The position numbers were made by a program, and so were the translations under genes. Below the pieces are notes generated by a model that saw only the letters and a program-made list of their open reading frames with translations, made no database searches and was not told where the DNA came from. This document shows positions 1,418-22,149 of a DNA stretch of 64,000 nucleotides, piece by piece. Position 1 is the first letter of the stretch. Every line of letters begins with the position of its first letter. Origin of the DNA: Candidatus Obscuribacteraceae bacterium (GTDB lineage Bacteria > Cyanobacteriota > Vampirovibrionia > Obscuribacterales > Obscuribacteraceae); the NCBI GenBank assembly GCA_044226015.1, contig JBGAHS010000006.1:448001-512000 (forward strand), read 5' to 3'.

Positions 1418-4400
1418 ATGGCAGACATTTTATGGTCTATTAGGGCAACTGACCTGGGCGAGTTTATCAGATACAAGTCGTGCGAAAGGCGCTTTAGACT
1501 TGCTTACAACAATCGGGCGTTGGCCAGACAATTGCCTTATGCGGCAAGACTCTTTGCGGGACTCGACCCTGTTCTCCAAGCGCATGGTAAAAAACGCGAG
1601 GCTGAGTGGGAGCATTATCTGCAAAAATTGGGACTGGAGAATCTAATCCAAACCCAAAACGCAGAGACAGAAGCAGCGAAAAGCGTTCAGTGGGATGATT
1701 TTCTCGACATGCTTTCCAGGCTCGGGCGCGATAAGAATGCTTACGTAAGAGAACTTTCGGTCAAGGGCAGCTTCGGTTCTTTTCATGTCGAGGGAAGAAT
1801 TGATTTTGCAATTATCTTATGGCGCAACGGAAAGCCTAAACTGCGCCTGGTTGAATGCAAGGCAAGCAGAAGAGACCAGACTTACCATCGCGCGCAGCTC
1901 TCAATTTACAAACTCATGGTATCGCAGTTAGTAGCAAACACCGGACGTGTTCCTGTTGGTCGCTTCGATTTCGGTCAAAACGATATCGAGTGTGTCGTAG
2001 CACGAATTGACGAAGAGACAAACAAAAACCAGGCCTTTTTGGAACTTCCATCGTTCGATCTCAGCATGATGGAAGAAGACGTGTTGCTGATGCTAGCTCC
2101 GGATGGAGCACTTTCCACGATTCTTGAAAAGGAGTTGGCAGCGCTAGATTATCAATTTGAAGCAAAATGTGACGATTGTGTATTCAACATTCATTGCTTG
2201 CCTGAAAGTGCCAGAGAAAGAAAATTGCAGTTGCTTGCTTGCGACCCTGCAACTACCCGCAGTATCGAAGAAGAAGGCATTAAGACCCTGGATGAGCTTG
2301 CAAAACTCGACCTGAATAGCCAGCAAGCGGACAATATTAATAAGTCAGCCAATTTTAGCGGCAGCTTACAGTTTTTGCAGTCAAAAGCTCGCGCGAGACT
2401 AAGTAGCCTACCATCAAATACTGAAGCAGCGGAACCCGTTCATTTTTTGTCATATCGTGTTTTCAGCCAGCTGCCAGAGCACGATTGCATGGGTCAGAGC
2501 TTGATTCGCATCTATATTTGCGTTGATTATGATTACAGTGAGAATCGCATTGCTGCAATCACCGCTCATGTGACAAATAGCGGCGGATTTTTGCATACGC
2601 CCTGGAATGATGACACTCCCATTGCCGATGTAATCGAGAGAGTTGGGATTAGCACAGAAGACGAGCTAGCATCTTGCAATATCGAATGGAAAGACTCTGA
2701 ACTTAACGGCATCGATATCAGTGCTCACATTGAGAAAGAATGGACAGGAGTCTATGCCTGGGACACGGCGTCTGAGAAAGAGATGCTAGAGCAGTTTTTC
2801 CAGGGTCTCGTAGAAGCAATCGTAAAGGTGAATAAGGGCAAAGCTCATGCTCCGATACATTTCTATGTCTGGGGTAGAAACGAAATCAGTCGTCTGGTAG
2901 AAGCGTGTTCTCGGTCCAGCTCCGAATTATTAGGACACCTGCAGCAACTATTTGGTTGCAGAGAGTCGCTTGAGCAACTCATTTATTCGTGCCTGCAAGA
3001 TGAAGTAAACAATCGGTTTGGGCTAGCCTGGACTGGACGAGGACTACTGGTAGCAAGCTCTCTCGATTGGTATGGATGGAAGTTCCATTGGAAGCGCACC
3101 GTCAATGGTGAGCGAGTAGCACTTGATGAGAAATTCAGACAGGACATGTTTGACTTCACAGAAGAACTCAATTTTGCGCAAGGACAGTGGCTAAACGATG
3201 CTGATGTCGCTGCTGATAAGCACAGATTCGAATTGAGAAGCCAATTCAAAGACTCCCTTCCGATGGGCTATCTACATGCATATTGGGGTTCACTTGCAAA
3301 TCTGGAATCCAACACCAGCAAGACTGCAAGATCGGTAATCGAGAATTATCGCGGCGCTGAGTCTCCCGAATTACTTACAGAGTTTCTGATAGCGCGCGTC
3401 CACGCATTGAGGTGGATTGAGGAACGCATCGATAAAAAGAGCTCTGCATTGCAGAAGCCTCCAATGTTTCTCAAAGACTTGCCCAAATTCTCGCTAGGCA
3501 TTGACCATCCAGCGAAGGCTTCGATTGATTTTCTTCGTCTCGATTTTCACATCAAATTTACAGACTGGCTTGCAGAACACCTGCATGCACCTGTTGAAAG
3601 AGTGAGCTCTGGACGAACAATACCGGTGAGAGATGTTCGCGCGAAAAATGGTAAGTTATTTGCGAAAATTGATCTTGAAGGTTATGGAATAAGCACTGAA
3701 GACTTGTCTGCGCGCTCAAGCATTGAGACAGGTTCGTTTATCAGACTGAGCCCCTGCGAAGCTGACCCAGCCACATCTCAAAGCCTATTGCAATTCGGAC
3801 GACAGGGCGTTACAGCAATAATTGAAAGCCTCGACTGGAAAACCCAAGTTGTAGAGATGAGTCCGTTCAGCATGCAAGGCGATCGATATCGCCTTCCGAG
3901 CAGGCAAATAGATAGATATTCGGATTCCTTGATTTTCAAGTATGCAACTATCGATGAAAGTCCTTCCGACTTTGTTTCCACGCGAGTCGAACAGCGCCTG
4001 CTTTCAAAAATCGGACGACACGCTTACGATTGGTTTGATCGAACGAAGCCACAGATTCCTCATGCAGAGCAACTCACGGACATAGAACTTCAGAGTCTAA
4101 AAAAAATGGTTCGGCACTTCAAGCCGACCGGTACGAGTGAACTAGCAGTAGATCAAGCTAATGCTATTTTGATTGGCTTGAACTCAACTGTTCAACTATT
4201 GCAAGGTCCACCCGGAACAGGAAAAACCACAACAACGGCTGCTGCAATTCTAGCGAGAGTACTTGCAAAAAAACAAAAAACGACGGTGGTGGTTTCTGCA
4301 ACCACCCATACTGCAATTGACACCCTGCTTCAACGAATCGCTGATATTGAATCTCCGATGCGAACAGAGGCTGCTGAAAATGGCTTCGAACTTAAACAAC

Positions 4401-5632
4401 TAAAGATAGTTAAAGTCGGCTCAGAATCAGAAACTAATGAGCCTGGAAATGTCATCAACAGTGCAAAAGCAGATAAAAGTACCTGGCAAAAATTGTCTCT
4501 GCTGCAAAAAGACTCGATTCTAATCTTAGGGGGAACCGTCGGTTCATTGCTTAAGATGGGCTTAGACCCAGAGTTCAGGGCAGACCTGCTGATTATAGAT
4601 GAAGCAAGCATGATGGTGTTTCCACATTTTCTTTCTCTTGCCACACTTGTGCGGGCATCAGGAAAAATCATGCTCGCAGGCGACCATAGACAGTTATCTC
4701 CCATACTTGCTCATGATTGGGAACGAGAAGATCGCCCACCCTCTGTTATCTATCAGCCTTACGTGAGTGCTTACAGTGCCATCAAAGACATTGCAGAAGT
4801 AACAGACAGAGAACAAGTCACTACATCAGCATTACAAATGACATTTCGTCTGCCAGACGAGATTCGTTTGCTTATTGCCCGACTCTACAAACTTGACGAG
4901 GTCGAATTGCATGGCACTACGGGTAGTTCACTAACAAGCAAGCGTTTGTCACAAAACAAAGGGGGCGGGGCAGCTCAAGGAGTGCGGGCTGCTGAGCAAG
5001 CAACTGAGCACGCAACTGAGCAAGCAACTGCAAGAGAAACAAGAGCCACTCTCATTGGCTCGAACCTGATAGAACTCACTTCAGACCAAGAATTCTTCCA
5101 AACAGTCTGGCAGAAAGAAACTGGACTCTACTTGCTTTCTCACACAGAAAGAGAGTCAAAGCAAAGCAACGAGCTAGAAATAAAGTTGATTGAAGAGTTG
5201 TTACGCTCCGCAAATCTGCCACCGGCATCAGTGGCGATAGTGACTCCTCACAGAGCGCAAAGAGCAATGCTGCAGACTCGACTATCAAAATTTTCTAGCA
5301 CTGTAGATTTGATTGATACTGTAGAAAGATTGCAGGGTGGTGAACGACCCAACATCATTTTCTCAGCGACCGTCAGCGACCAGGCAGCAATAGCTGATAA
5401 CGTGGAGTTCATTTTGAATCTGAATCGTTCAAATGTTGCCTTCTCGCGCGCAAAACAAAGACTGATTGTTTTGTGCTCTCAAACACTGATGAATTTTGTG
5501 CCTTCCGTTCTCGAACAATACGAGGAAACCCTTCTCTGGAAATCACTCAGACAGGTATGCTCAAAACTAGTTGGCAGCACAAGAATTGCCGGACACCGGA
5601 TAGATTTATTAAAACCGCAAGACTTTTGCTAG
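1418..5632 (+). CDS. PD-(D/E)XK nuclease plus SF1B (Upf1/Dna2-like) helicase fusion, 1404 aa
   Basis: N-terminus: C(ERR), 'GRIDF', 'VECKAS', 'QLSIY', 'CDDCVFNIHC'. C-terminus: 'QGPPGTGKT', 'IIDEAS', 'GDHRQLSP', 'VTPHRAQ', 'TVERLQGGE', 'NRSNVAFSRAK'. Confidence 0.88.
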   Translation: MADILWSIRATDLGEFIRYKSCERRFRLAYNNRALARQLPYAARLFAGLDPVLQAHGKKREAEWEHYLQKLGLENLIQTQNAETEAAKSVQWDDFLDMLSRLGRDKNAYVRELSVKGSFGSFHVEGRIDFAIILWRNGKPKLRLVECKASRRDQTYHRAQLSIYKLMVSQLVANTGRVPVGRFDFGQNDIECVVARIDEETNKNQAFLELPSFDLSMMEEDVLLMLAPDGALSTILEKELAALDYQFEAKCDDCVFNIHCLPESARERKLQLLACDPATTRSIEEEGIKTLDELAKLDLNSQQADNINKSANFSGSLQFLQSKARARLSSLPSNTEAAEPVHFLSYRVFSQLPEHDCMGQSLIRIYICVDYDYSENRIAAITAHVTNSGGFLHTPWNDDTPIADVIERVGISTEDELASCNIEWKDSELNGIDISAHIEKEWTGVYAWDTASEKEMLEQFFQGLVEAIVKVNKGKAHAPIHFYVWGRNEISRLVEACSRSSSELLGHLQQLFGCRESLEQLIYSCLQDEVNNRFGLAWTGRGLLVASSLDWYGWKFHWKRTVNGERVALDEKFRQDMFDFTEELNFAQGQWLNDADVAADKHRFELRSQFKDSLPMGYLHAYWGSLANLESNTSKTARSVIENYRGAESPELLTEFLIARVHALRWIEERIDKKSSALQKPPMFLKDLPKFSLGIDHPAKASIDFLRLDFHIKFTDWLAEHLHAPVERVSSGRTIPVRDVRAKNGKLFAKIDLEGYGISTEDLSARSSIETGSFIRLSPCEADPATSQSLLQFGRQGVTAIIESLDWKTQVVEMSPFSMQGDRYRLPSRQIDRYSDSLIFKYATIDESPSDFVSTRVEQRLLSKIGRHAYDWFDRTKPQIPHAEQLTDIELQSLKKMVRHFKPTGTSELAVDQANAILIGLNSTVQLLQGPPGTGKTTTTAAAILARVLAKKQKTTVVVSATTHTAIDTLLQRIADIESPMRTEAAENGFELKQLKIVKVGSESETNEPGNVINSAKADKSTWQKLSLLQKDSILILGGTVGSLLKMGLDPEFRADLLIIDEASMMVFPHFLSLATLVRASGKIMLAGDHRQLSPILAHDWEREDRPPSVIYQPYVSAYSAIKDIAEVTDREQVTTSALQMTFRLPDEIRLLIARLYKLDEVELHGTTGSSLTSKRLSQNKGGGAAQGVRAAEQATEHATEQATARETRATLIGSNLIELTSDQEFFQTVWQKETGLYLLSHTERESKQSNELEIKLIEELLRSANLPPASVAIVTPHRAQRAMLQTRLSKFSSTVDLIDTVERLQGGERPNIIFSATVSDQAAIADNVEFILNLNRSNVAFSRAKQRLIVLCSQTLMNFVPSVLEQYEETLLWKSLRQVCSKLVGSTRIAGHRIDLLKPQDFC
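4993..5030 (+). repeat. In-frame 12-nt tandem repeat x3 (GAGCAMGCAACT; EQAT-EHAT-EQAT)
   Basis: Directly visible in the sequence; lies in a linker within the helicase domain. Confidence 0.8.
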
Positions 5633-9510: not shown

Positions 9511-11265
9511 ATGAAAAACACTATAACCACAATTAAATCCCGGCTGAAAGAAGCTGCAGTCAAATCTTTCGGTTCTGAACTTGAAAACATCGAGCCTCAG
9601 GTCGATGCTGCAAGTAATCCGACATTCGGCGACTTCCAGAGCAACATTGCTATGGTTTTGACCAAACAATTGAAAAAACCACCAAGAGCAATCGCGGAAG
9701 CAATCGTTCAGAATCTCGAAAGCGACGGCATTTACGATACCCCATCAGTTGCGGGTGCAGGCTTCATCAATTTGAAGCTAAAAAAAGAATACCTTGAGTC
9801 ACAGCTGAACGCTATCAAAAAAGACCCCAGACTAGGCATCGCTAAAGCAGCTCCACCAAAGAATGTGGTAGTTGATATGTCCAGCCCCAACATAGCAAAA
9901 GAGATGCATGTAGGACATTTGCGCTCTACAATCATTGGTGATGCGATAGCAAGAGCATATGATTTTCTCGGTCATAACGTAATCAAAGTGAACCATGTAG
10001 GTGATTGGGGAACGCAGTTTGGAATGCTTATTGCGGAGTTGAAAGAAAAATATCCGCAAGCACTAACTCAACAAGATGCTCTCGACCTGGGCGATTTGGT
10101 CGATTTTTATAAGCAATCGAAAAAGCACTTTGACGAAGATGCCGATTTCAAGGCACGCGCGCATCAGGAAGTAGTAAGCCTTCAATCAGGAAATGCCGAT
10201 AGTATCAAGGCATGGAAACTCTTATGCAATCAGTCGAGAAAAGCATTCGAGGAAATCTACGACATACTCGACATTCGCAATTTGAACGAACGCGGCGAAT
10301 CCTTTTATAATGACATGCTTGCCGACACAGTTGAAGGACTGGTTGAGAAAGGCATTGCGGTTGAAGACCAGGGGGCTCTCTGCGTTTTCCTCGATGGCTT
10401 CACCAACGAAGAAGGTAAACCGTTCCCTCTTATCGTCAAGAAAAAAGACGGCGGCTTCAATTATGCCACCACCGATATAGCAGCAATAAGACACAGAGTT
10501 GGCCCCCCAGATAATGCTGATGAAATCATTTACGTTGTTGGTGCAGAGCAATCATTACACTTGCAGATGATTCGCCTGGCTGCAATCAAAGCCGGTTGGT
10601 TGCCTGAAAGAGTTCGCACCGAACACGTGGGCTTTGGTGCAGTTCTGGGTGAAGACGGAAAGAAACTGAAAACCAGGTCAGGTGAAACAGTTCGCTTGAA
10701 AGACTTGCTTGATGAAGCAGTGGCTCACGCACGAGAAGACATAGAATCACGGTTTCAAGACAAAGAAAGCGCTGAGTGGAAAGATTCTATAGCACAGCTG
10801 ATAGGAATAGCCGCAGTCAAATACGCAGACTTGAGCTTGAACCGAATGACCAATTACATGTTCAGCTTCAAAAAGATGCTAAGTCTTCAAGGAAATACGG
10901 CACCATATATGATGTATGCATATGTGCGCGTGCGAGGCATAGCCAGAACTGCTGGCATCAAATTTGAAGAAATCGATGACAGCGCCAAAATGAATCTAGA
11001 TAGCCCTCAAGAATTGGAATTGGCTAAACAGATTCTGAAGTTGGATGAAATTCTGGACACTGTAACTCGCGAGTTCATTCCTAACCGAATATGCGAATAT
11101 ATTTTCGAATTGAGCCAGAAATTCAACCAGTTTTATGAGAATTGCCCGGTGCTTAATGCAGAAGAACCAACGCGTACATCGCGCCTTCTACTTTGTGACA
11201 TGACCGCAAGAACCATCGAAACAGGTATGAGCCTGCTAGGAATAAATGTGCCAGATCGCATGTAG
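9511..11265 (+). CDS. argS: Arginine--tRNA ligase
   Basis: 'FGDFQSN', 'SSPNIAKEMHVGHLRSTIIGD' (HIGH motif), 'GDWGTQFG', 'KTRSGE', 'GNTAPYMMYAYVR', C-terminal 'LLGINVPDRM'. The 8878 start in the track is an antisense extension. Confidence 0.97.
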   Translation: MKNTITTIKSRLKEAAVKSFGSELENIEPQVDAASNPTFGDFQSNIAMVLTKQLKKPPRAIAEAIVQNLESDGIYDTPSVAGAGFINLKLKKEYLESQLNAIKKDPRLGIAKAAPPKNVVVDMSSPNIAKEMHVGHLRSTIIGDAIARAYDFLGHNVIKVNHVGDWGTQFGMLIAELKEKYPQALTQQDALDLGDLVDFYKQSKKHFDEDADFKARAHQEVVSLQSGNADSIKAWKLLCNQSRKAFEEIYDILDIRNLNERGESFYNDMLADTVEGLVEKGIAVEDQGALCVFLDGFTNEEGKPFPLIVKKKDGGFNYATTDIAAIRHRVGPPDNADEIIYVVGAEQSLHLQMIRLAAIKAGWLPERVRTEHVGFGAVLGEDGKKLKTRSGETVRLKDLLDEAVAHAREDIESRFQDKESAEWKDSIAQLIGIAAVKYADLSLNRMTNYMFSFKKMLSLQGNTAPYMMYAYVRVRGIARTAGIKFEEIDDSAKMNLDSPQELELAKQILKLDEILDTVTREFIPNRICEYIFELSQKFNQFYENCPVLNAEEPTRTSRLLLCDMTARTIETGMSLLGINVPDRM

Positions 11266-11266
11266 C

Positions 11267-12067
11267 ATGGCAAGATCAATTTTGAAGCAAACCATAACTC
11301 TGCTCTTTTTGCTTTTGCTTACAACTTCACTGGTAGAAGCAAAAGACGGAGTCAATGCTGCCTCTAGCAATGGAGCGGAGCAAAGCCTGATACTCCAGGG
11401 TGGCTTAAAAATGAGCGAGAAGATAATGCCAGTTCCGCTCAATTTGAAAAGCGGAAGTTCGTTTTACAGCGCAATGATAAGTGACAACGAAGAAGAGGAT
11501 GAGTGGATCAAATTACCATCCTGGCGCGCTGGTATTTTCGAAAGACATACAGCATCACGCCAACGAAAAACTGATAGCAACAAATCACACGTCTTTAGGT
11601 CCAAATACGTGACACCTGAACAAGTGCTACAGAAGGATCGCAATGGTGGCATATGGCAATATTTGACGGCGCCAGAGCACCAGAGCATCGATATCGGAGC
11701 CTATGTTCAATACTCGAAGATTACGGATAACGAGATAATTGAATCATCCGAAAAAGAAGAACTAATGCGCACAAAATTCCTTTCTCTCAAGGTAGACAAA
11801 ACCAGCGGGAAAATTTTGGAAGTGTTTCAGCAAGAACAAATGGACTATTTGACACCCCTCAGAAAAGGGAAAGGATTTCACCAGGATAGCTACGTCAAAT
11901 GGTTTGATGAGACCGGACAGGCAAGCAGCAAACCAACAGATGAAATGTCTGCGGACATGATACTCGTAAAACCCTATAGCCTGAGCAACAGCTACAAAGG
12001 CAAAGATATGCGTGCAAGCTTACGACAATATCTAAAGAATCATAATCTAGAAGAATTGATACCTTAA
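11267..12067 (+). CDS. Hypothetical exported protein
   Basis: Signal peptide 'LLFLLLLTTSLVEA'; starts 2 nt after the argS stop. Confidence 0.7.
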   Translation: MARSILKQTITLLFLLLLTTSLVEAKDGVNAASSNGAEQSLILQGGLKMSEKIMPVPLNLKSGSSFYSAMISDNEEEDEWIKLPSWRAGIFERHTASRQRKTDSNKSHVFRSKYVTPEQVLQKDRNGGIWQYLTAPEHQSIDIGAYVQYSKITDNEIIESSEKEELMRTKFLSLKVDKTSGKILEVFQQEQMDYLTPLRKGKGFHQDSYVKWFDETGQASSKPTDEMSADMILVKPYSLSNSYKGKDMRASLRQYLKNHNLEELIP

Positions 12068-12099: not shown

Positions 12100-12881
12100 A
12101 TTGAGTGAATCTCGTTAAGGTTCGATGGCTAAATCGCCTTCTGATATAGATCGAACTAAAAGTCGATATACATTCTGCTTTCGAACCGATTCATGCGACC
12201 GTCCATCGAGCAAACTTCAACAAGCTCAATGCTTTGCGGACTTTGCGGAATTCCGCAAGAGCTTTGCGTGAAAGCTAATTGTTCAAACTCAGTGCAAAAA
12301 GCATAATCAACTCATCCTCGAAATGAGATGAGTTCGAGCAACCCTGAAGCTTTGAACTCCTCTCGCGAGAGGACAACTAATTCGAACTGACAAACAAGTT
12401 TTTTTACCCGGTGGATCCGTGCTTTGCCGGTTGCCCCGAGACGCAACCGGCAGGGCACAGACTCTGAAAGATCAGTCGAAAAAGTTGAGTGTTGCCGAGG
12501 GCGCCGCAATCGGCACAATTGCAGCGATCTGTTGCTCTGAGAACCGCCTACCTCTGAAGGCATAAAGCGCACTGTCCTGGAGAGTTGCAATGTTTTGGCT
12601 AGACAGTTGAATGGGAGCATCTTCTGTCAAAGCCGCGGCGAGTGAATTGATACTCTTCAATTCACTTCGAAATTCGGATTACGGGGAATAATCCGAACGC
12701 AAGGCGATTGGACCGAGCTAGAGCCATTGCTCACCATCGCAGCTGTGCCTCTAGCGTAGCAGAGGGGAATCTGCTTCACTAGAGGCGCAGCAAATCAAAG
12801 AGCTATCTTTGATTGATTATAAGAAGGAAACGATCGTTTGAAGAATGAGTGCTGGGTAGCAGAGCCCAGCACTCATTCTTC
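12100..12881 (+). ncRNA. Candidate large structured non-coding RNA (family not recognised)
   Basis: About 800 nt without a credible ORF. More than a dozen stems visible by eye, several nested. Mismatches resolve as G-U on the + strand. Boundaries approximate. Confidence 0.5.
12840..12881. terminator. Perfect 17-bp inverted repeat, probable terminator
   Basis: GAAGAATGAGTGCTGGG-tagcagag-CCCAGCACTCATTCTTC, about 40 nt past the stop of the minus-strand gene ending at 12922. Confidence 0.65.
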
Positions 12882-12921: not shown

Positions 12922-15900
12922 TTACTGCATCCCGTTCTTTGTCTGCTTCGCTTGCCAGGCTTCGCGGAATTTCTTGACGCTACTATTGAAATCGTCAATC
13001 ACATTGGCATGAAGCGAAATTTGGAGTGGTTCCATCAACCTCTGTCCTAATGCAATTCTCATTTCAGTTCTGTTTCTAAAATCTCGCGTCAATGCTGATG
13101 AAAATTCAGGGACAGTTATGAGTTTGTTGATTCGACCGATCAATTGAATTCTGTCACTCTCTGTTCCCCACGAAGAGAAATTCTCGATATGCTGCCGAGC
13201 CTGAAGCAGATATTCTGGAGACTTGGTGCCAAGCAAAAGTCCGATTGCTTGTGTTCTTACAGGCGAGGAAGTATCAACCAAGTTACTCGCTAATTCATAA
13301 GCTCGATCAGGGTTAACTTTGAAGATTGTGTCCAATGCCTCAGTCGAGAACTTACTCCTTTCTTTGAGTCTGGCGATCATCAAATCTTCAGGCATGAGTT
13401 CACGAGCAGCGGCAATGAGTTTAGGATCGCCAGAGGCACCCAAGACGCGCAGGTTGCTGGCAGCAGCGGAAAACGTTTTGGTATCGGATATCCAGGCTCG
13501 ATAGTCAACCTTTGACTGAGCTTTAGCAGCATCGTAAGAGGCTCGCAAAGCATCATCATATAGTTCAGGTTTCTTTTCTGCAATTCGCTCGAGTAATGTT
13601 TGCATTGCCAGTTTGCTGATGTGATCTGCATTTGGATTTGCAGCCAACCGTTTTGCTTGAGCTAGTACCAGATGCTGCAGCGGAGTTGGATCCTTCATCA
13701 CCTTAAGTTGACTTACAATCTCAGGCATGCCACGGAGTAACCATGACGGCATATCTTGATTAACCAGCATGCGAAGTGCCATTATTTGCGCTGGACCATT
13801 AGACAATGCCAGACGACGACTAGCAAAATACTGTTCATTCGTTCCGTGTATTGGACTGATAAGTTCAAGGGCAGTTTTTGCACTTTCTGGAGCGCTGCCA
13901 TTCATGGCGAGTTGCTCTAAAGCAGAAATGGGAAATAATCTTGCTGCCAATTCTTTGCTGGCACCTGGCTCTGCAAGAGCTTTTGCCAGTTCGAGACTGG
14001 CCTTGTGATAAGGCATAGCTGGGTCTAGAATATTCGCTACAGAATACGTATTTAGAAGTTGAACCATCTTCTCGTAGTTTCTTGCGCGCAAGGCGAATGA
14101 TTGTGGGTCTACAGCCTTCATCAACTCAAGACTCAAGACAACCCTTGCAACTACATCGCGACTAAAATTGCCGTCAGCTGGTCTTGCATCGGCAGCAGCT
14201 TCTAGCGCTTTCTTATCGACAAGTTTTTCAGCAAAGGCTCTGCTCTCTGGAGACGAGTACAACATTCGAACTAAGGAGGTGCTTTCAAGAACATCTTGAA
14301 TTTTATGGCTTGCAAGCTTTTCATTTAGGCTCTTCACTGCCTTAGGCAGCACTTCCGTATCAATATAATCGAGCCTCCTTGTCAGCTCTTCTCGCCCCTT
14401 GCTATTCTCACTTTCGGGAGCCTTCGCCATACTTGCCCTGAGCGCACTACCTATGATGGCAGTTCTTATAGGTGCCTTCTCAGCAAGAGTTAGAAAATAC
14501 TCGGGAGAAGGATCCAAAACGGCTTCGCCGAAGCTAGTTGCCCAATTTTCGCTGCTGTTCCTTTTGCCGTAAGAGCGCAAGACAAACGGTTCGAGTTTTA
14601 TTGCTTGCGAATAGGCCGCAAAGGTATGGGGATACTCAGCTTGCATAAGATGAGTCCATTCGTGATTTAGAACCGTTGGAACTTCGTTGAATACCTGGCT
14701 GCTTTCTTTGAATAATCGAATTCGTCCGCCACCACTACTTGTCGCGTCAGCCAGGGTGTCTTTAGAGGCACTGTAAGCTAAAGAACTGTCATCAGTCAAA
14801 ACTAGTAGCTGATTGAGCCTGCGATTAGGAAGCCTGTCCAAATATTGTCCAAAGTACTCAGGCAACAAGTGGTCGCGATAAGGAGAAGTAAACAATGTTC
14901 TCCTGGCTTCATTTATTTGCTCGCGAATTTCTGGAAGCATAGATGGTGACAAGGTAGCTGTCCGGCGCAAATCGCGCAACTCATCAAGCCTGGCGGCGTG
15001 AGTCTCCTCGACAGCGATTGTCTGAGTTCGCTCACGCAGCCCAGAGAGGAACTTGTCGAAAGTGTCCTGATTGATAGTTCGCTCTTTTAACTGCTCTCTT
15101 CTATCGGCAAGCTCTACTGTCTGCTCTTGCGACATAATTCTGTAGACACGCACATTGAGATTTGATTTAACCAACGGAGGAAGGTCTTCTGGCTTCGCAT
15201 CTGCTGTAACAGCTCTGTGTTCCATCCGCAAACTCGTCCGTTCATACATCTGTCCGGAACTAGCTGGCAATATTCTCAACTCAGCCTGCCATGGCTGTTC
15301 CATTCTTTCAGCAGACATATTCAACGCGAGGTAAGTGTCGATAGATTTGGCTTTGACAATAGCAGAATCATATCCAATGCCCAAAAGCTTGTTCCATCTG
15401 TTGCCAGTGCTGTCCACAGACTTGCCATAATTTTCCTGCAAGCTCCAGACCCGAAACGGCGCAGTTTCGGCACTGCGGTGCATGAAGCCAGATGATTCAA
15501 GGCTGCCATAAGGAACCCAGATTGAATTGGCCCCTCGCTTTTCACTCACGGACTTTTCGCTAAAAATGCGACCATCTTCGAGCTGCCAGAATTTCCCTTT
15601 TTCTGTTTCGTACTGTTTTGCACCGTTAAGTGCACCTTCTTCTGGACGATTATTTTCTCCAATCTTTTTTGCCACCAGAGACTCAATGAGATTTGCTTTC
15701 ACAGGTGCATTATCATTGGCAAGATTGAACTTCATTGGTGATCTTGAAACAATTCCTATGCCATCAATCTGTTCAGTAATAGAAACTGGTTCGTTCATTG
15801 CTCTAGCGACATTCGAGTCTAGAGGCACTTCTTTGGGACTGACTGTCTCTGCTTGGGCGCTTACAATCTTTTCCGGAGATAAGCCAGCTTCATTCTGAGC

Positions 15901-16734
15901 TTGTGCCTGGCGGCTGATGTGACGGCTGGCAATTATGCCACCTGGTGCTGCGGCTAGCCCTGAACTCAGTCCTTCCAGAGTTCCTCGATAGACAATTTCG
16001 CCTAAATCATAATGTCCAGACTGATACTGCCGTTGTGCCTCTGCAGATGAACCAGAGAGAAAACCGAAACTTGCACCAGTTGAGATAGTCTGCATGACTG
16101 TACTGCGCTCAAGCAAACCTCTGGTGAGCACGTTTGCTGACTTCATTATCAGAGCTGAACCAGAAAACACAGCTATATCCGTAGCAAGCGCAGGCAAATT
16201 CACTGCACCAGAGGCGGTATTATACAAACCACGAGATAGACTGAACTCTCGATTCTCATCCAAGTAGCTCTGTCGCGTTAAACCGCCATCTATCAATCTC
16301 GAACTAATACCAAAGCTCATCGCCTTAGCGGAGATTTCTAGCGGCTTCCCACTCAAAAACTTGGGTGCTAAGCCTGCCTCGACCAGCCCATTTACCCCGC
16401 TAAAGTTCACTCTTCCGAGCAAGTCGAAACTGCCTTTGGTCAGGGCACCTTTGCCCGCCCCCAAAGCAAAATCGTTCAACTGGTCCGAGAGAGCATCTCC
16501 CTGCTTCGCTTCATCGAGCCCCGCGAGGACAGCAGCCGCACCATAACCAACGGCGGCAGCCCTTCGACTTATCGATGGCAAAAACAGCGGAACAGTTTTG
16601 GCGAATTGAGCTAAATAACCTGCCAATTCATTGCGAAAGGAAGAGCTGCTGTCGTCAGCTGGATGCGCGACGGTGTCGATGGCATTTTTGATGCCAGATT
16701 TCAGCAGAGAATCTTTTTCTCGATTCAGTTCCAT
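12922..16734 (-). CDS. Large (1270 aa) hypothetical protein: Gly/Ala-rich hydrophobic N-terminus, central HExxH motif, helical C-terminus
   Basis: Long ORF; 'LNHEWTHL' followed by 'SYGKRNSSENWA'; Leu/Ala-rich helical C-terminal half. Confidence 0.65.
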   Translation of the reverse strand: MELNREKDSLLKSGIKNAIDTVAHPADDSSSSFRNELAGYLAQFAKTVPLFLPSISRRAAAVGYGAAAVLAGLDEAKQGDALSDQLNDFALGAGKGALTKGSFDLLGRVNFSGVNGLVEAGLAPKFLSGKPLEISAKAMSFGISSRLIDGGLTRQSYLDENREFSLSRGLYNTASGAVNLPALATDIAVFSGSALIMKSANVLTRGLLERSTVMQTISTGASFGFLSGSSAEAQRQYQSGHYDLGEIVYRGTLEGLSSGLAAAPGGIIASRHISRQAQAQNEAGLSPEKIVSAQAETVSPKEVPLDSNVARAMNEPVSITEQIDGIGIVSRSPMKFNLANDNAPVKANLIESLVAKKIGENNRPEEGALNGAKQYETEKGKFWQLEDGRIFSEKSVSEKRGANSIWVPYGSLESSGFMHRSAETAPFRVWSLQENYGKSVDSTGNRWNKLLGIGYDSAIVKAKSIDTYLALNMSAERMEQPWQAELRILPASSGQMYERTSLRMEHRAVTADAKPEDLPPLVKSNLNVRVYRIMSQEQTVELADRREQLKERTINQDTFDKFLSGLRERTQTIAVEETHAARLDELRDLRRTATLSPSMLPEIREQINEARRTLFTSPYRDHLLPEYFGQYLDRLPNRRLNQLLVLTDDSSLAYSASKDTLADATSSGGGRIRLFKESSQVFNEVPTVLNHEWTHLMQAEYPHTFAAYSQAIKLEPFVLRSYGKRNSSENWATSFGEAVLDPSPEYFLTLAEKAPIRTAIIGSALRASMAKAPESENSKGREELTRRLDYIDTEVLPKAVKSLNEKLASHKIQDVLESTSLVRMLYSSPESRAFAEKLVDKKALEAAADARPADGNFSRDVVARVVLSLELMKAVDPQSFALRARNYEKMVQLLNTYSVANILDPAMPYHKASLELAKALAEPGASKELAARLFPISALEQLAMNGSAPESAKTALELISPIHGTNEQYFASRRLALSNGPAQIMALRMLVNQDMPSWLLRGMPEIVSQLKVMKDPTPLQHLVLAQAKRLAANPNADHISKLAMQTLLERIAEKKPELYDDALRASYDAAKAQSKVDYRAWISDTKTFSAAASNLRVLGASGDPKLIAAARELMPEDLMIARLKERSKFSTEALDTIFKVNPDRAYELASNLVDTSSPVRTQAIGLLLGTKSPEYLLQARQHIENFSSWGTESDRIQLIGRINKLITVPEFSSALTRDFRNRTEMRIALGQRLMEPLQISLHANVIDDFNSSVKKFREAWQAKQTKNGMQ

Positions 16735-17083: not shown

Positions 17084-20000
17084 ATGCCATTAGAAGAGCA
17101 AGATGACAGCATAAAGAAGCGGCACGAAGAGCCCGACAATAGCTCGTCCAGACTAAGGTCTGAGAGCGATCTTGCCTTGCGCGAAAATATGAACACTTCG
17201 CGTTCGCCGTCAGATACATCCAAAGTACCAGCCATCTCGCTAGATGAGAGCCGCACGACATCGAACAAAACTGACACACGTCAAGTTGTGACCAGAGTTT
17301 CAGATGACGATGCCTCACCGGATTCATTTTTTGCTCCGAGAAAAGACAATGGCTCAGCAAAGCCGTCTCCTCAAGCCGAGCTTCCGCCAAATTCCAAAGG
17401 AACACTCAAAGAGAATTTCAACAGCAGTCCCGATATCAATACAAAGCAAGATACTTATTCGGTGAAAAACGTAGCTGAGAAAACTCAGCAGAACTCGTCG
17501 GACAGTGGCAGCGCTTACCGCAGCGTGGCTGATACTCTCACGAGGACTGCCGCCGGTGTTGGCGCGAGCTTGGTGCACGAAATTAACAATGCAAATGCCA
17601 GAATTGCGACTGAAACGGCAATGGCGGCAAACTCTCCTGTTCAATCGTTAAAGTCAGAAATCAAAAACAATATAGAACCCTCCTTCACCAGTCCAAAGCA
17701 ACTTGAAAAACTGGAAGCCAATTCCGCGTCCATTGGAAACATGTTGAACAGTGCTTCGCGCGAGGTAGGGTCTGCCTTGGCTCAAAAGGCTTCGCTTGCA
17801 GGCTCTGTCGGTGAATTGGTGAACCGCAGCGACTCGATGAAACAAGAGATGCAGCATTATGCCCAAGCAGCTAAAGCAGTCGAGGCGCATAATCTGGAAA
17901 CTCGCGCTGACGGTCTCAAAGGTGATGGATATGCAGGCGCCAAGAGTTACGAAAACATGGTCAAGAACGACGCTTTCAATTCGTTCGCAGCGAAAGAAGC
18001 CCTGAAAATGGAAAACAGCGGCGGAGCGAAAACAGAATCTGGCTTGCTTCACGGAGCTGATAACACAAACGGCATTCTTCCAAAAATCGAAGGCGCTATC
18101 AGAAACAACGGAGAGCCCGGAGCAAAATCTCCCGAGCCAGCCGGGCGTTCACTGGAAGCAGCGATCAAAACCTCGGGCGATTCAATTCGAACGACGGAGT
18201 CTCGCCTGTCCGAACAAGGTAAGCAGCTCGGAGAGCAATTGTCCAAGTCGCCTGAGCTGGGCGCGAAAATCAACTCGCAAGATCTGCGCTCCAATGTCCC
18301 AGAAAATACATTGAAGCCCGGTGCTATAGACAATGCACGCTTGAGCCCGTCGGACTCAAGCATCAAGTCTAATGCACCGGAACAAAGCAATAAGGTAAGT
18401 CCAAGCGACAACGGCAGCAGAGTCAACAGCCCAGAAACGGTTTCCAGACCACAAACAGAGCCAGGCAACAAAGTTGGACTAGAGCCAGTGCACAAGACTA
18501 CTGCAGACAATATTGTTAGCAAGAGCACTGCTGACAATGTAGCCAAAGTTTCGGCCGATAGTTCGTTGAAGGGCTCAACTATTCCAGGTGCAAAAGTTGA
18601 ACCTGGCACTCATACTGAAGCAGCAAAGCTAGAAGCAGTTCGTGTTGGTGAACAAAAAAATCAGACCGGTGCGGTGAAAGACGCGGGCACAAATTCAACT
18701 ATAGGAAAATCAGAAACCGCAGCTAATAGCATTGCCATCAAACTTGATCCTTCAAAAGGCGAACTTTCTACAAAAGGCGACCATGCAGCAATCAAGCTCG
18801 ATGCCGGAGTTGCCGTAAAGAGCGCTATGCTAAACAGTAGTGAAATGCACTCGGCGGTGCAAAATAGCATTTCTAAACTTGATGCACGGACTCTTCCAAG
18901 CACTAATAATGATGCCGCTAAAGTTATTTTGCAAGGAAAAGTAGAAAACCAGACAAGCATTACTGGAGCCAGAGACAACGGTGCAAGGGACATACAAACG
19001 AATAAATCTGCGCAAGCAGAAGTAAGCACCACACGCAGTATCGCACAATCAAATCTTTCAGCTAAGGCAGAGGAACATATCGTCGCCGGAAAAAATCAGT
19101 CCTCGCAACTTGAGGGGAAGGTGAATACTAGCAATATCAACAATATTGCCGGCACTCGCAATGCGGAAGTTGCTGCAGCAGGCGGTCGCGCTCAAGCCAA
19201 TATCGCGCAAGGCAAAGAAATAAGCGGCGGCAACCGGGCAGACTTGAATGGACGAAGCGATGCAACAGTTGGACAGAAAGGAAGCACCATCGGTAATGCC
19301 GCAATACTTGGCGGAAAAGTTGCCGGCGATGCTGCTGTCGGAGTTAAAGGTGCTGGACGCGCCATCCGCGCTGAAGGCGGCAGGTATCTAACAGGTGTAG
19401 AAATCGGACTACTAATTGCAGCGGTGGGTATCGCCAAAGCACGTAACGATGCTCGCAACGCCAAACCAGGGGAAGGGGCAGCTAAAGAATTTAGCACTCA
19501 TAAAGGTTTCCTCACCGAAAGAGGTTCGCGTATTACCGAACTCACTGCAAATGTGCGTCGATTCCCAGGAAAAGAAATTACATTGTCCGCCATGTTGGCA
19601 ATTACCGGTGCTGCAGGCAAACAAAGCGAACAGGCTAACGGCATGGCTAACCGCAGTATGGATTTCAATATTAGAATCGAGAGAAGCATTGGTGCAACCG
19701 GTGGAAAAACGAGCAAGGAAGATCTTGTAGCAGCGGCACTGTTCCAACAAAAGGAAGCAGATCCACCTGCTGAACTTACAGATAAGAAGAAGCCAGAGGA
19801 AGAAGATAGCAAGCTCGACACGCAATTGCTTGGACTACTGCCAAGCGCAGCCTTGTTGCGTGGACGAAAGAACGAAGCAGAAGAAACTGATGAATCAGAC
19901 GATATAACTGCTGCTTCAGACTCTCTGGACCTGGGCAACACGGCATCTGCTTATCGGCGCGTCGTGAAAATAAAAGCTGAAGAAACTCTGGTGAGCATTG

Positions 20001-20275
20001 CAGAAAAGGAATTCTCCGATGCAAACATCGCGTGGCTAATAGCTGACATAAACTTCGATCAGACAACACAGCATGAAATTGACGGAAAACGAGTAGTTGA
20101 AGTTATAAAAGGGCAGGATTTGCAATTGCCTCTTGAAAGTGAAATAGCTGAGTTCTACAATCGCCGTGATGGATTTGTTGACCCCGACAATTTGGTCACC
20201 ATCATTGTTGAGAACGAAATCAACCGCGACAAACTAGACAAAGATTTGAAGGATATTCTTGGACTGGCAAGATGA
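17084..20275 (+). CDS. Large low-complexity protein with a C-terminal LysM-like domain
   Basis: About 900 aa Ser/Asn/Gly/Ala-rich region; C-terminal 'KIKAEETLVSIAEKEFSDANIAWLIADIN...GQDLQLP'. Confidence 0.7.
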   Translation: MPLEEQDDSIKKRHEEPDNSSSRLRSESDLALRENMNTSRSPSDTSKVPAISLDESRTTSNKTDTRQVVTRVSDDDASPDSFFAPRKDNGSAKPSPQAELPPNSKGTLKENFNSSPDINTKQDTYSVKNVAEKTQQNSSDSGSAYRSVADTLTRTAAGVGASLVHEINNANARIATETAMAANSPVQSLKSEIKNNIEPSFTSPKQLEKLEANSASIGNMLNSASREVGSALAQKASLAGSVGELVNRSDSMKQEMQHYAQAAKAVEAHNLETRADGLKGDGYAGAKSYENMVKNDAFNSFAAKEALKMENSGGAKTESGLLHGADNTNGILPKIEGAIRNNGEPGAKSPEPAGRSLEAAIKTSGDSIRTTESRLSEQGKQLGEQLSKSPELGAKINSQDLRSNVPENTLKPGAIDNARLSPSDSSIKSNAPEQSNKVSPSDNGSRVNSPETVSRPQTEPGNKVGLEPVHKTTADNIVSKSTADNVAKVSADSSLKGSTIPGAKVEPGTHTEAAKLEAVRVGEQKNQTGAVKDAGTNSTIGKSETAANSIAIKLDPSKGELSTKGDHAAIKLDAGVAVKSAMLNSSEMHSAVQNSISKLDARTLPSTNNDAAKVILQGKVENQTSITGARDNGARDIQTNKSAQAEVSTTRSIAQSNLSAKAEEHIVAGKNQSSQLEGKVNTSNINNIAGTRNAEVAAAGGRAQANIAQGKEISGGNRADLNGRSDATVGQKGSTIGNAAILGGKVAGDAAVGVKGAGRAIRAEGGRYLTGVEIGLLIAAVGIAKARNDARNAKPGEGAAKEFSTHKGFLTERGSRITELTANVRRFPGKEITLSAMLAITGAAGKQSEQANGMANRSMDFNIRIERSIGATGGKTSKEDLVAAALFQQKEADPPAELTDKKKPEEEDSKLDTQLLGLLPSAALLRGRKNEAEETDESDDITAASDSLDLGNTASAYRRVVKIKAEETLVSIAEKEFSDANIAWLIADINFDQTTQHEIDGKRVVEVIKGQDLQLPLESEIAEFYNRRDGFVDPDNLVTIIVENEINRDKLDKDLKDILGLAR

Positions 20276-21416
20276 CAAAGCAACTCGGGCTCTCGCGGAA
20301 AAACTGCGAATGCGCCGTTTTTTGCGTAATGTACTCTGGGCAGGAGTTAATACACTCTATGTAGCTGGGCTCAGTGTATTAATCAAACCGACAGACCATG
20401 CCACTTTTGCAGAACTTGTTCACGGTTTTGATGACCTGATAACAGCACTTAGAAAAGATCTTTCCGGGGTAAGCGAACCGTGCGGCACTATATGCGGTTG
20501 CATAGGCTTTTTCCTTTTTTCCAACGCAGCAATCTGGATCAGTCAGAGATTCACTGGCGCAGTTCGCGTGGTCGTGCTGATTCAATTATCAGTTCTTAGT
20601 CTTTTATATGAACTTGTATGTTTCCAATTCTTTGGTGCCGAAGGTCGCCCACTCTCGACAGTTCTAGCTATTGTGCTGTCTCTCTGCGTAGGGATATTCT
20701 TGCGAAAACGAGATACAGAGAGACGCGAGCTTGATGCAAAACAGATTGAAATCAAATTGCGAAACGATGAACTGCAAGAGTCTCGACTGGCACTAGTGAA
20801 ACAAGACGAGAGTGAACGCCGCCTTCTAGCCGCCGATTTGCACGATCAGGTGCTGAATGATTTGCGCAGCATCCAAAAGAAATTTGAGCAGTATGTCAAA
20901 GAACCCAGCACTGACTCAAAGGATGCAATCAATTCGCTACTAAAAACAACCATGAGCGACATTCGCGAAATCATGGATGAGCTTTGCCCGGTATTACTTG
21001 AAGAATTCGGATTAGGGGCAGCTATTGAAGATCGCCTTGATAAGGCTTCGAAACAGTCCGGATTTCAGGTCAGGTATAATCAGTCTGCATCCAGCGATAC
21101 TCTTGACCGCCTCTCGGCTGTCGAAAAACAACTGTTGTATCGCCTGGTACAGGAATCTCTTAACAACGTCAGCAAGCACGCCGCTGCTACAGTTGTGAGA
21201 GTAAACATCGACGAAACCGACTCACAACTGTTTCTTCGAATAAGTGACGACGGTAAAGGCATTGACCCCAGCAAACTTTCAGAAAGTTCTAGAGGAACTT
21301 TGTATATGCGGCTTCGGGCAGCCCTGATTGGTGCTAAAGTATCATGGAAGCCGGGTCCTGATGGCAAGGGTACTACAGTGGAGATTCGAGCGAATGTACA
21401 AAATACTGGTAGTTGA
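20259..21416 (+). CDS. Membrane sensor histidine kinase, HisKA_3 (NarX/UhpB-like)
   Basis: About 4 TM helices; 'ERRLLAADLHDQV', 'LEEFGL', 'LYRLVQESLNNVSKHA', 'ISDDGKG'. Start codon uncertain (TTG overlapping the upstream gene). Confidence 0.9.
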   Translation: MDWQDDKATRALAEKLRMRRFLRNVLWAGVNTLYVAGLSVLIKPTDHATFAELVHGFDDLITALRKDLSGVSEPCGTICGCIGFFLFSNAAIWISQRFTGAVRVVVLIQLSVLSLLYELVCFQFFGAEGRPLSTVLAIVLSLCVGIFLRKRDTERRELDAKQIEIKLRNDELQESRLALVKQDESERRLLAADLHDQVLNDLRSIQKKFEQYVKEPSTDSKDAINSLLKTTMSDIREIMDELCPVLLEEFGLGAAIEDRLDKASKQSGFQVRYNQSASSDTLDRLSAVEKQLLYRLVQESLNNVSKHAAATVVRVNIDETDSQLFLRISDDGKGIDPSKLSESSRGTLYMRLRAALIGAKVSWKPGPDGKGTTVEIRANVQNTGS

Positions 21417-22149
21417 AGACGTCGCAGCGTTGAGGCAGCATGTCATAAAGATTTTGAAAGAGACTGTGCCGGATATCCACATAGTCGAAGCTACCAACGG
21501 TGCCGAAGGGCTCCGCATGTATAAGGTTGAGCGTCCTGACCTAATTGTTATGGACATTTTGATGCCAGAAATGACTGGAATCAAAGCGGCTCAACAAATA
21601 TGGGCTGAGAACTCAAGGCAAAAGATTCTCTTCTGGTCGCAGTTTCACAAAGAAGCATATGTCCGAGAGTTGGGAAAAATCGTTCCAGATGAAGCCATTC
21701 ACGGATATGCACTGAAAACTGAAAGCGATGAGAAATTGGCTCACGCAATCAACACAGTACTTGTTCACGACAACTCGTATATCGACCCTATAGTGCGCGG
21801 TGTACAGCATGCAATACACGTAAGAGCTGGGCTCTTAAACGAGAGCGAAGCCGCCATTCTCGAAGATTTGATTCTCGGACTTACAGATAAAGCCATTGCT
21901 ATGCGCCAGCACATCAGCGTAAGGGGTGTGCAAAACAGAATTTCAGCGCTGTCTGACAAGCTAGTAAAAGGCTTGGACATTCATGCAAAAGAGACCGCTG
22001 GCTTGGAAGTTTTCAACACAAGAATGCGTATTATGCTCGAAGTGTTCCGTCAAGGTTTTGTTGAGCCAGAAGAAATCGATGGATTGGAGTCAGACCTGGC
22101 CGGTTGGATGGCACGACGCTTGAACTTTGAGATGCCGAGCAAGAAATAG
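21394..22149 (+). CDS. NarL/LuxR-family response regulator
   Basis: 'KILVVED', 'PDLIVMDILMPEMTG', HTH 'GLTDKAIAMRQHISVRGVQ'; overlaps the kinase stop. Confidence 0.9.
   Translation: MYKILVVEDVAALRQHVIKILKETVPDIHIVEATNGAEGLRMYKVERPDLIVMDILMPEMTGIKAAQQIWAENSRQKILFWSQFHKEAYVRELGKIVPDEAIHGYALKTESDEKLAHAINTVLVHDNSYIDPIVRGVQHAIHVRAGLLNESEAAILEDLILGLTDKAIAMRQHISVRGVQNRISALSDKLVKGLDIHAKETAGLEVFNTRMRIMLEVFRQGFVEPEEIDGLESDLAGWMARRLNFEMPSKK

Follow-up and report, generated by a model that had tools for sequence, protein, structure and literature searches.

A genus-conserved predicted structured RNA outside Rfam within a ComA-box-like regulon of Candidatus Obscuribacteraceae

The window analysed here, 64,000 nt of contig JBGAHS010000006.1 from a Candidatus Obscuribacteraceae bacterium, which is related to cyanobacteria and is not photosynthetic, holds a predicted structured RNA whose stems are real and which is conserved at the genus level, outside Rfam and within a ComA-box-like regulon (Table 1); what we say of its function is predicted from these features. 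The predicted RNA runs from 12314 to about 12830–12881 and may be a regulator-induced base-pairing RNA that works like RNAIII and not the message of a conserved protein, a reading to which we give a little less than an even chance. Below, G000 denotes the genome of the window and G001–G007 are relatives from the same genus.

Table 1 Features of the locus (window coordinates)
Feature	Position	Strand	Remarks
argS, arginyl-tRNA synthetase	9511–11265	+	Pfam tRNA-synt_1d, E 2e-122; marks the upstream side of the slot in G000, G002, G006 and G007
273-aa ORF without family	11246–12067	+	absent from the slot in three relatives; six paralogous matches elsewhere in the genome
Hairpin upstream of the promoter	12106–12193	+	z −1.2 for 12100–12240; no homology in relatives
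Extra operator half-sites	12234–12239 and 12264–12269
Palindromic operator TTGCGG-N4-CCGCAA	12243–12258		conserved in 12 aligned copies; binding protein predicted
Predicted sigma70-type promoter	12279–12307	+	−35 TTGTTC 12279–12284, 17-nt spacer, −10 CATAAT 12302–12307
Predicted structured RNA	12314–12881	+	z −7.8 for 12314–12830; end at about 12830–12881
P1, irregular 5′ hairpin, loop ACCCUGAA	12315–12373	+	individual folds in G000, G007 and G002
U-tract, invariant CCCGGUGGA (12407–12415) and P2	12399–12463	+	nearly invariant in G000, G002 and G007
P2, 16-bp hairpin	12419–12434/12443–12458	+	model R1
Hairpin C (GCCGAG/UCGGC)	12494–12514	+	also readable as Ala-Glu of an ancestral ORF motif
Hairpin D, C/U-rich loop ACCUCUGA	12546–12561	+
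Hairpin E1, GGAG loop	12597–12634	+	most compensatory changes
Five further hairpins	12641–12666, 12673–12697, 12704–12740, 12742–12791, 12793–12814	+	similar order in G007
Perfect 17-bp hairpin	12840–12881		40 nt from the stop of the convergent gene at 12922
1270-aa ORF without family	12922–16734	−	missing from the slot in relatives
1063-aa low-complexity protein	17084–20275	+	homologue follows the slot in five relatives
HisKA_3-type histidine kinase	20310–21416	+	Pfam HATPase_c; HisKA_3 below cut-off
NarL/LuxR-type response regulator	21361–22149	+	Response_reg E 2e-16, GerE E 0.015; candidate activator of the promoter

Results

Folding strength and extent of the RNA

A first-pass annotation of the region 12100–12881 had listed a dense series of stems, all of which were found where it placed them, and the region folds far below its shuffled controls (z −9.2 on the + strand and −8.9 on the − strand, with 0 of 20 shuffles as low). 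Rfam models gave no match at the gathering threshold in the window and, down to E 10, just 14, all of them generic hairpins, in line with the absence of a known family supposed by that annotation. It had also seen no trace of tmRNA or RNase P here, and the Rfam models place the copies of both elsewhere in the genome. No ORF of at least 60 aa starts inside the region on the + strand, and two (102 and 62 aa) lie on the − strand. A mobile repeat of the MITE or REP kind is not what we see: the region is single-copy, and other matches are pieces of 16–34 nt at E 0.13 or worse. The whole genome (92% complete) has no 6S RNA by its Rfam model, and this locus has none either.

The notion of one unit of about 800 nt did not survive. 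Positions 12100–12240 fold no better than shuffled sequence and 12243–12313 form a promoter block. As the promoter lies at 12243–12307, the first 214 nt of the region fall outside the predicted RNA, and in the stems GTTCAAA/TTTGAAC and AACTCATC/GATGAGTT the 5′ arm precedes its predicted start entirely or for the most part. The hairpin at 12106–12193 is likely the 3′ end of the argS/ORF273 message, outside the RNA. The part of the earlier proposal that is supported, by homologues in which promoter and hairpins are conserved, is a multi-hairpin, largely non-coding + strand RNA outside Rfam; its predicted length is about 520–570 nt and not 800 (517–568 nt with about ten hairpins, both ends being predicted). 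Within it, the 500 nt from 12314 to 12813 fold 58.6 kcal/mol below their own shuffles. Among 147 intergenic regions sampled from 390 of at least 500 nt, each represented by the best of at most three windows, just one ranked lower, and by eye this region is made up of perfect hairpins plus a tRNA-like stretch.

The assignment to the + strand is supported by the orientation of the promoter and by a U-A/U-G/C-G exchange in P2. The wobble argument originally made for it fails: G-U pairs on the + strand are indeed present in three stems, yet minimum-energy folds of the three genomes give the − strand as many or more (+ versus −: 13 versus 16, 10 versus 13 and 9 versus 21).

The predicted RNA is preceded by a conserved promoter-like block

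The palindrome at 12243–12258 is the exact ComA inverted-repeat consensus; the TTGCGT half-site that follows it resembles RE3 of the ComA direct repeat (RE3-5nt-RE4), and no RE4 was seen by eye. Twelve copies of the block align without gaps and share TTGCG(G/T)-N4-(A/C)CGCAA, a half-site 5 nt further on, a −35 element, a spacer and a −10 element. CATAAT is present in nine of the 12 and TTGTT in eight, at constant distance, and the 17 bases between them vary freely. Such a combination of constant length and unconstrained sequence is characteristic of a −35/−10 spacer. All of this is seen in an alignment; a generic promoter scan did not flag 12279–12307. An A conserved seven bases past the −10 element corresponds to 12314 in the window and would be the first nucleotide of the RNA.

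A relaxed promoter pattern gave 47 matches in 26 of the 107 genomes of the order, compared to four for a reversed control, and was found in six of eight genomes of the window’s genus and in six of six and eight of eight genomes of two others. In these 26 genomes, it mostly stands before mRNAs. At least 12 of 20 further matches have an ATG-started ORF within 215 nt downstream, often reached via a structured leader, and an mRNA origin of the RNA is therefore likely; it probably arose from an mRNA encoding a small acidic protein of this regulon. A weight matrix finds three clear promoter copies in G000, of which the other two precede acidic proteins of 245 and 238 aa; the 245-aa protein had no usable match in the Protein Atlas. 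Neither operator nor RNA was seen on the 3′ side of argS in 13 further genomes, namely G001 plus 12 of other genera. In metagenomes, the promoter pattern gave two matches, one arising by chance in a coding gene and one corresponding to the G005-type locus, and the P2 pattern gave none.

Several further loci of this promoter were noted. In G041 (L089:5174-13560), four copies are present, two before short ORFs with acidic products (about 79 and 78 aa) and one directly after the regulator. The copy in contig C10 of G000 (L083:3703-5483) lies between the gene of the 238-aa acidic protein and a divergent ECF-like sigma factor gene. In contig C5 of G076 (L137), a match to the pattern is followed by about 440 nt of hairpin-rich sequence without a long ORF, which is possibly another RNA or a chance match.

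Conservation of the hairpin series within the genus

DNA matches to the region occur in five of the seven same-genus genomes and in none of 33 others. A P2 pattern gave three matches in the genome collection, all in Obscuribacterales/Obscuribacteraceae records. The match stands directly after argS in G002, G006 and G007; G002 and G007 retain the series of hairpins at this position, which with G000 makes three full copies, and G006 retains only its 5′ part. The copies fold with z scores of −7.8 (G000), −7.4 (G007) and −5.8 (G002), and that of G007 ends in a stem with U7 near +575. Common to these three genomes is the order of a 5′ hairpin with a CCUGAA loop, the U-tract, CCCGGUGGA, P2, C, D and E1. 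An automatic alignment yielded no consensus for P1.

Model R1, built on P2 and trained on G000, G002 and G007, finds the untrained G006 copy with E 2e-5. An extra match in G111 (E 0.046) was weak and was rejected, and nothing else in the 107 genomes was credible. argS is 73–75% identical between genomes of the genus, yet the 5′ strand of P2 is nearly invariant. Farther downstream, C, D and E1 keep their order and spacing (146–149 nt) in three genomes. When the C-to-E1 block is aligned pairwise, 0 of 500 shuffles do as well for G000 with G007 and for G007 with G002, and 205 of 500 do for G000 with G002. Past E1, G007 and G002 alone align (1 of 500), G000 aligns with neither of them in this 3′ part, and the sequence of the hairpins between 12641 and 12814 shows no conservation beyond chance. 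Linkers vary in length between copies, and conservation is patchy. A second model, R2, built on C-D-E1, returned its three training copies and 13 weak matches in the 107 genomes; seven of these 13 were inspected and rejected, each being situated within or across a coding frame or missing the architecture.

Covariation gave a mixed answer. In a hand-set register, 116 of 126 cells are paired, eight of 11 double changes are Watson-Crick compensatory and seven of 15 single changes keep pairing, counts that come from three or four rows with helices and registers chosen by hand; the compensation test, with wobbles allowed and 0.45 as the chance rate, is marginal (p 0.06). Automatic alignments do worse, and on one of them the covariation term of E1 is unfavourable (+0.44). 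The compensatory changes are no more than supportive of selection at the RNA level.

The perfect hairpin at 12840–12881 is likely the terminator of the convergent gene, or one that the RNA shares with this gene, and was not flagged as a U-tailed terminator. In phages and plasmids, including 50,697 phage records, nothing matched the RNA, and two viral pattern scans gave one match without the hairpin and no match, respectively.

Is the RNA a message?

In G006, P2 lies within the 185-nt leader of a 277-aa ORF, and homology between the leaders of G006 and G002 extends as far as the ATG. Across C-D-E1, G007 has an open frame of 65 codons and G002 one of 71, each with an ATG and a ribosome-binding site; the probability of this by chance is about 5% in either genome. 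G000 lacks the segment with the ATG. Two non-ATG starts, GTG within P2 and TTG at 12485, were dropped for their poor ribosome-binding sites. In a tree of the genus, G000 groups with G007 (95/95) and G003 with G005, and G002 and G006 are left without firm placement.

These frames invite a different explanation, the main rival, which we consider possible though somewhat unlikely: the transcript would be a structured mRNA for a tiny acidic protein that belongs to the regulon and evolves fast, with P1 and P2 as its cis-acting leader. Its ORF would be translated in G002 and G007, and the window would carry a decaying copy whose start has been lost. Besides the shared leader and the ribosome-binding sites, it can point to a YAE/VAE sequence resembling the LAEEA motif of the family, to ORFs of 63–95 aa after the same promoter in other genera, to structured leaders of 120–180 nt that are common in the regulon, and to a 90% variant of the 71-aa peptide (P0004) in which the frame is intact. 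P0004 is the one relative of this peptide, and the 65-aa peptide has none among 5.8 billion proteins of similar length. The two peptides are, however, unrelated to each other (410 of 1000 shuffles score as well), and the nucleotide motifs D and E1 that they share are read in different frames in G002 and G007. Moreover, C, D and E1 persist in G000, which is devoid of the ATG, and align there with G007. The substitutions in P0004 are radical; as read back from the protein, two would imply a compensated pair in a stem of G002, one falls in the D loop and another would break a pair of E1.

Gene neighbourhood and the two-component system

The large low-complexity gene downstream of the slot has a promoter-like motif of its own, TGTCAAG...TA(G/C)A(A/C)T, in four of six genomes. 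Considering this motif and the stem with U7 that ends the G007 copy, the RNA is likely a separate transcript and not the leader of the large gene. The low-complexity protein, which like its relatives has a conserved C-terminal domain, accompanies the kinase-regulator pair throughout the family; the gene is split into two ORFs in G007, and the protein has no Pfam or NCBIfam match. Elsewhere in the window, at 1418–5632, a 1404-aa ORF has a nuclease-like start and, near its end, helicase-like motifs (by eye).

The nearest NCBIfam models of the kinase are UhpB, MctS and LiaS, each below cut-off. PDB relatives of the regulator include DesR, VraR and NarL, and its motif HISVRG(V/A)QNR is present in 15 of 15 aligned rows. 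In all six same-genus genomes that have the promoter, the slot precedes the large gene (about 1000 aa), the kinase and the regulator. A close orthologue of the regulator (85–96% identical in the output domain) is found in six of the seven relatives: all five that have the promoter, plus G004, the contig of which begins within the large gene. In G001, neither the orthologue nor the promoter is present. Operator-like sites were present at ten of 16 regulator loci examined and missing at six (one truncated, three from other genera and two paralogues).

A second predicted structured RNA in sister genera

In ten of the 107 genomes, the same promoter stands before a structured stretch of about 230 nt upstream of the regulator orthologue (all eight genomes of one genus and one genome each of two others; L104–L113). 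An example is L105:1501-1730 on the − strand. The 5′ domain of this RNA is closed, and UCCCCGGCCC is followed by a 13-bp hairpin that hardly varies. None of the four loci scanned matched Rfam. In a model-fitted alignment of 13 rows, three of which are short opposite-strand matches, 94% of cells are paired and three pairs have double changes; the covariation score does not exceed that of shuffles (115 of 500). Model R3, built on this second RNA, gave at best 6.5 bits against the RNA of the window, which is no match, and a profile search of the genome likewise found none.

Two other repeat-rich stretches of G000 were observed. At C10:354369-355166, an intergenic tandem array consists of repeats of about 55 nt, each with an internal inverted repeat, and at C4:98296-99556, four to five repeats of about 95 nt contain the palindrome TTCGAACCGCTATCGGTTCG.

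Discussion

The mechanism that we propose for the RNA is as follows. The kinase would phosphorylate the NarL-type regulator, and a dimer of the regulator would bind the palindrome (−71 to −56) and the half-site beside the −35 element and thereby switch on transcription. The 5′ hairpin would stabilize the RNA, and the exposed C/U-rich loops together with the U-tract and CCCGGUGGA could pair with ribosome-binding regions of targets, perhaps assisted by Hfq. An Hfq model matched weakly in all four same-genus genomes tested, exceeding the cut-off in one, and gave nothing in G069. When five segments of the RNA were scanned against 5660 start regions, no target stood out; the D loop alone clearly beat all five shuffles.

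The closest parallel is RNAIII of the Staphylococcus aureus agr system, described in PMC4152353 as a 514-nt RNA with 14 hairpins, a small ORF and C-rich loops that is induced by AgrA. The predicted RNA is like it in size, number of hairpins, the logic of the locus and the C/U-rich loops, and unlike it in that RNAIII models in Rfam do not match, the small ORF is unconserved and AgrB was found in none of five genomes. The output domain of AgrA is of the LytTR type; that of the regulator here is of the GerE/LuxR type.

The operator leads to Bacillus subtilis ComP/ComA. The ComA box, as given in PMC4797271, is the inverted repeat TTGCGG-4nt-CCGCAA with a downstream half-site. Both elements recur at our locus, as does the combination of a HisKA_3-type kinase with a NarL-type regulator, and ComA ranks first in the PDB for the helix-turn-helix output domain of the regulator, at a non-significant E of 0.19. 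The whole regulator is nearer to DesR and VraR, and no pheromone genes were recognized among the neighbours. ComA is not known to drive an RNA of this kind.

Regulatory RNAs as outputs of two-component systems also include VR-RNA of Clostridium perfringens, with a 72-codon ORF, and the streptococcal csRNAs (PMC4152353). Our RNA shares this position in a circuit with them; they belong to another phylum and do not match it in sequence. The regulators of VR-RNA and the csRNAs are of other families than the one found here.

After the message of a tiny protein, weighed above, two further explanations have to be considered. Control of the Rsm/Csr RNAs by GacA/UvrY is exerted by a NarL-type regulator acting on a palindrome, and our RNA could by analogy be a protein sponge of the CsrB/RsmZ type whose GGAG/GGGA loops are offered to a translational repressor. 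A GGAG-loop hairpin is indeed found in three genomes, with two copies each in G002 and G007. G000 has few such loops, however, there is no Rfam match, and CsrA is missing from all six same-genus genomes searched (70–95% complete), which makes this reading an improbable one.

Equally hard to credit is a pile of unrelated terminator or stabilizer hairpins between convergent genes, with selection acting on promoter and leader only. The genome does have many long perfect intergenic hairpins, the 3′ part of the RNA and the 12106 hairpin are unconserved, and the genes flanking the slot differ in relatives. Such a pile is at odds with the order and spacing of C, D and E1 kept in three genomes, with a folding excess among the top two of 148 regions, and with folding that is just as strong in relatives whose neighbouring genes are different.

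The first-pass annotation had suggested an ornate RNA of 800 nt in the class of OLE, GOLLD and ROOL, which are likewise long and structured. Dense structure and the absence of an Rfam match speak for it, but it is very improbable, since the promoter lies within the proposed span, conservation is patchy with linkers of varying length, the 3′ third does not align beyond chance, no model of the class matches, and the window has no tRNA and the RNA no phage match. GOLLD (often >800 nt) and ROOL are found in phages and prophages near tRNA islands, and OLE binds OapA (PMC12286853); none of the features tested for these RNAs is present here.

Taking the base-pairing regulatory RNA as the preferred reading, a wider picture can be drawn, which is speculative and which we ourselves regard as doubtful. 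It would be a quorum-sensing-like circuit in which a ComP/ComA-like pair acts through a Bacillus ComA box and has large structured RNAs as outputs. An RNAIII-like effector would here be in the course of being born from a protein gene, from the leader of the 277-aa ORF in G006, via a tiny unconstrained ORF in G002 and G007, to the ORF-free copy in the window, and in three sister genera the second RNA, upstream of the regulator in ten genomes, would take on the same role.

The literature covered, apart from most subscription journals and from the supplements of RNA-motif surveys, which could hold such motifs, yielded no paper on non-coding or small RNAs of Obscuribacterales. If the findings are real, the lineage gains a defined two-component regulon for which an operator is predicted and whose outputs include two structured RNAs undescribed so far, and a natural series that leads from an mRNA leader to an RNA free of any ORF. 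The pair of operator and regulator could be tested in vitro without culturing the organism.
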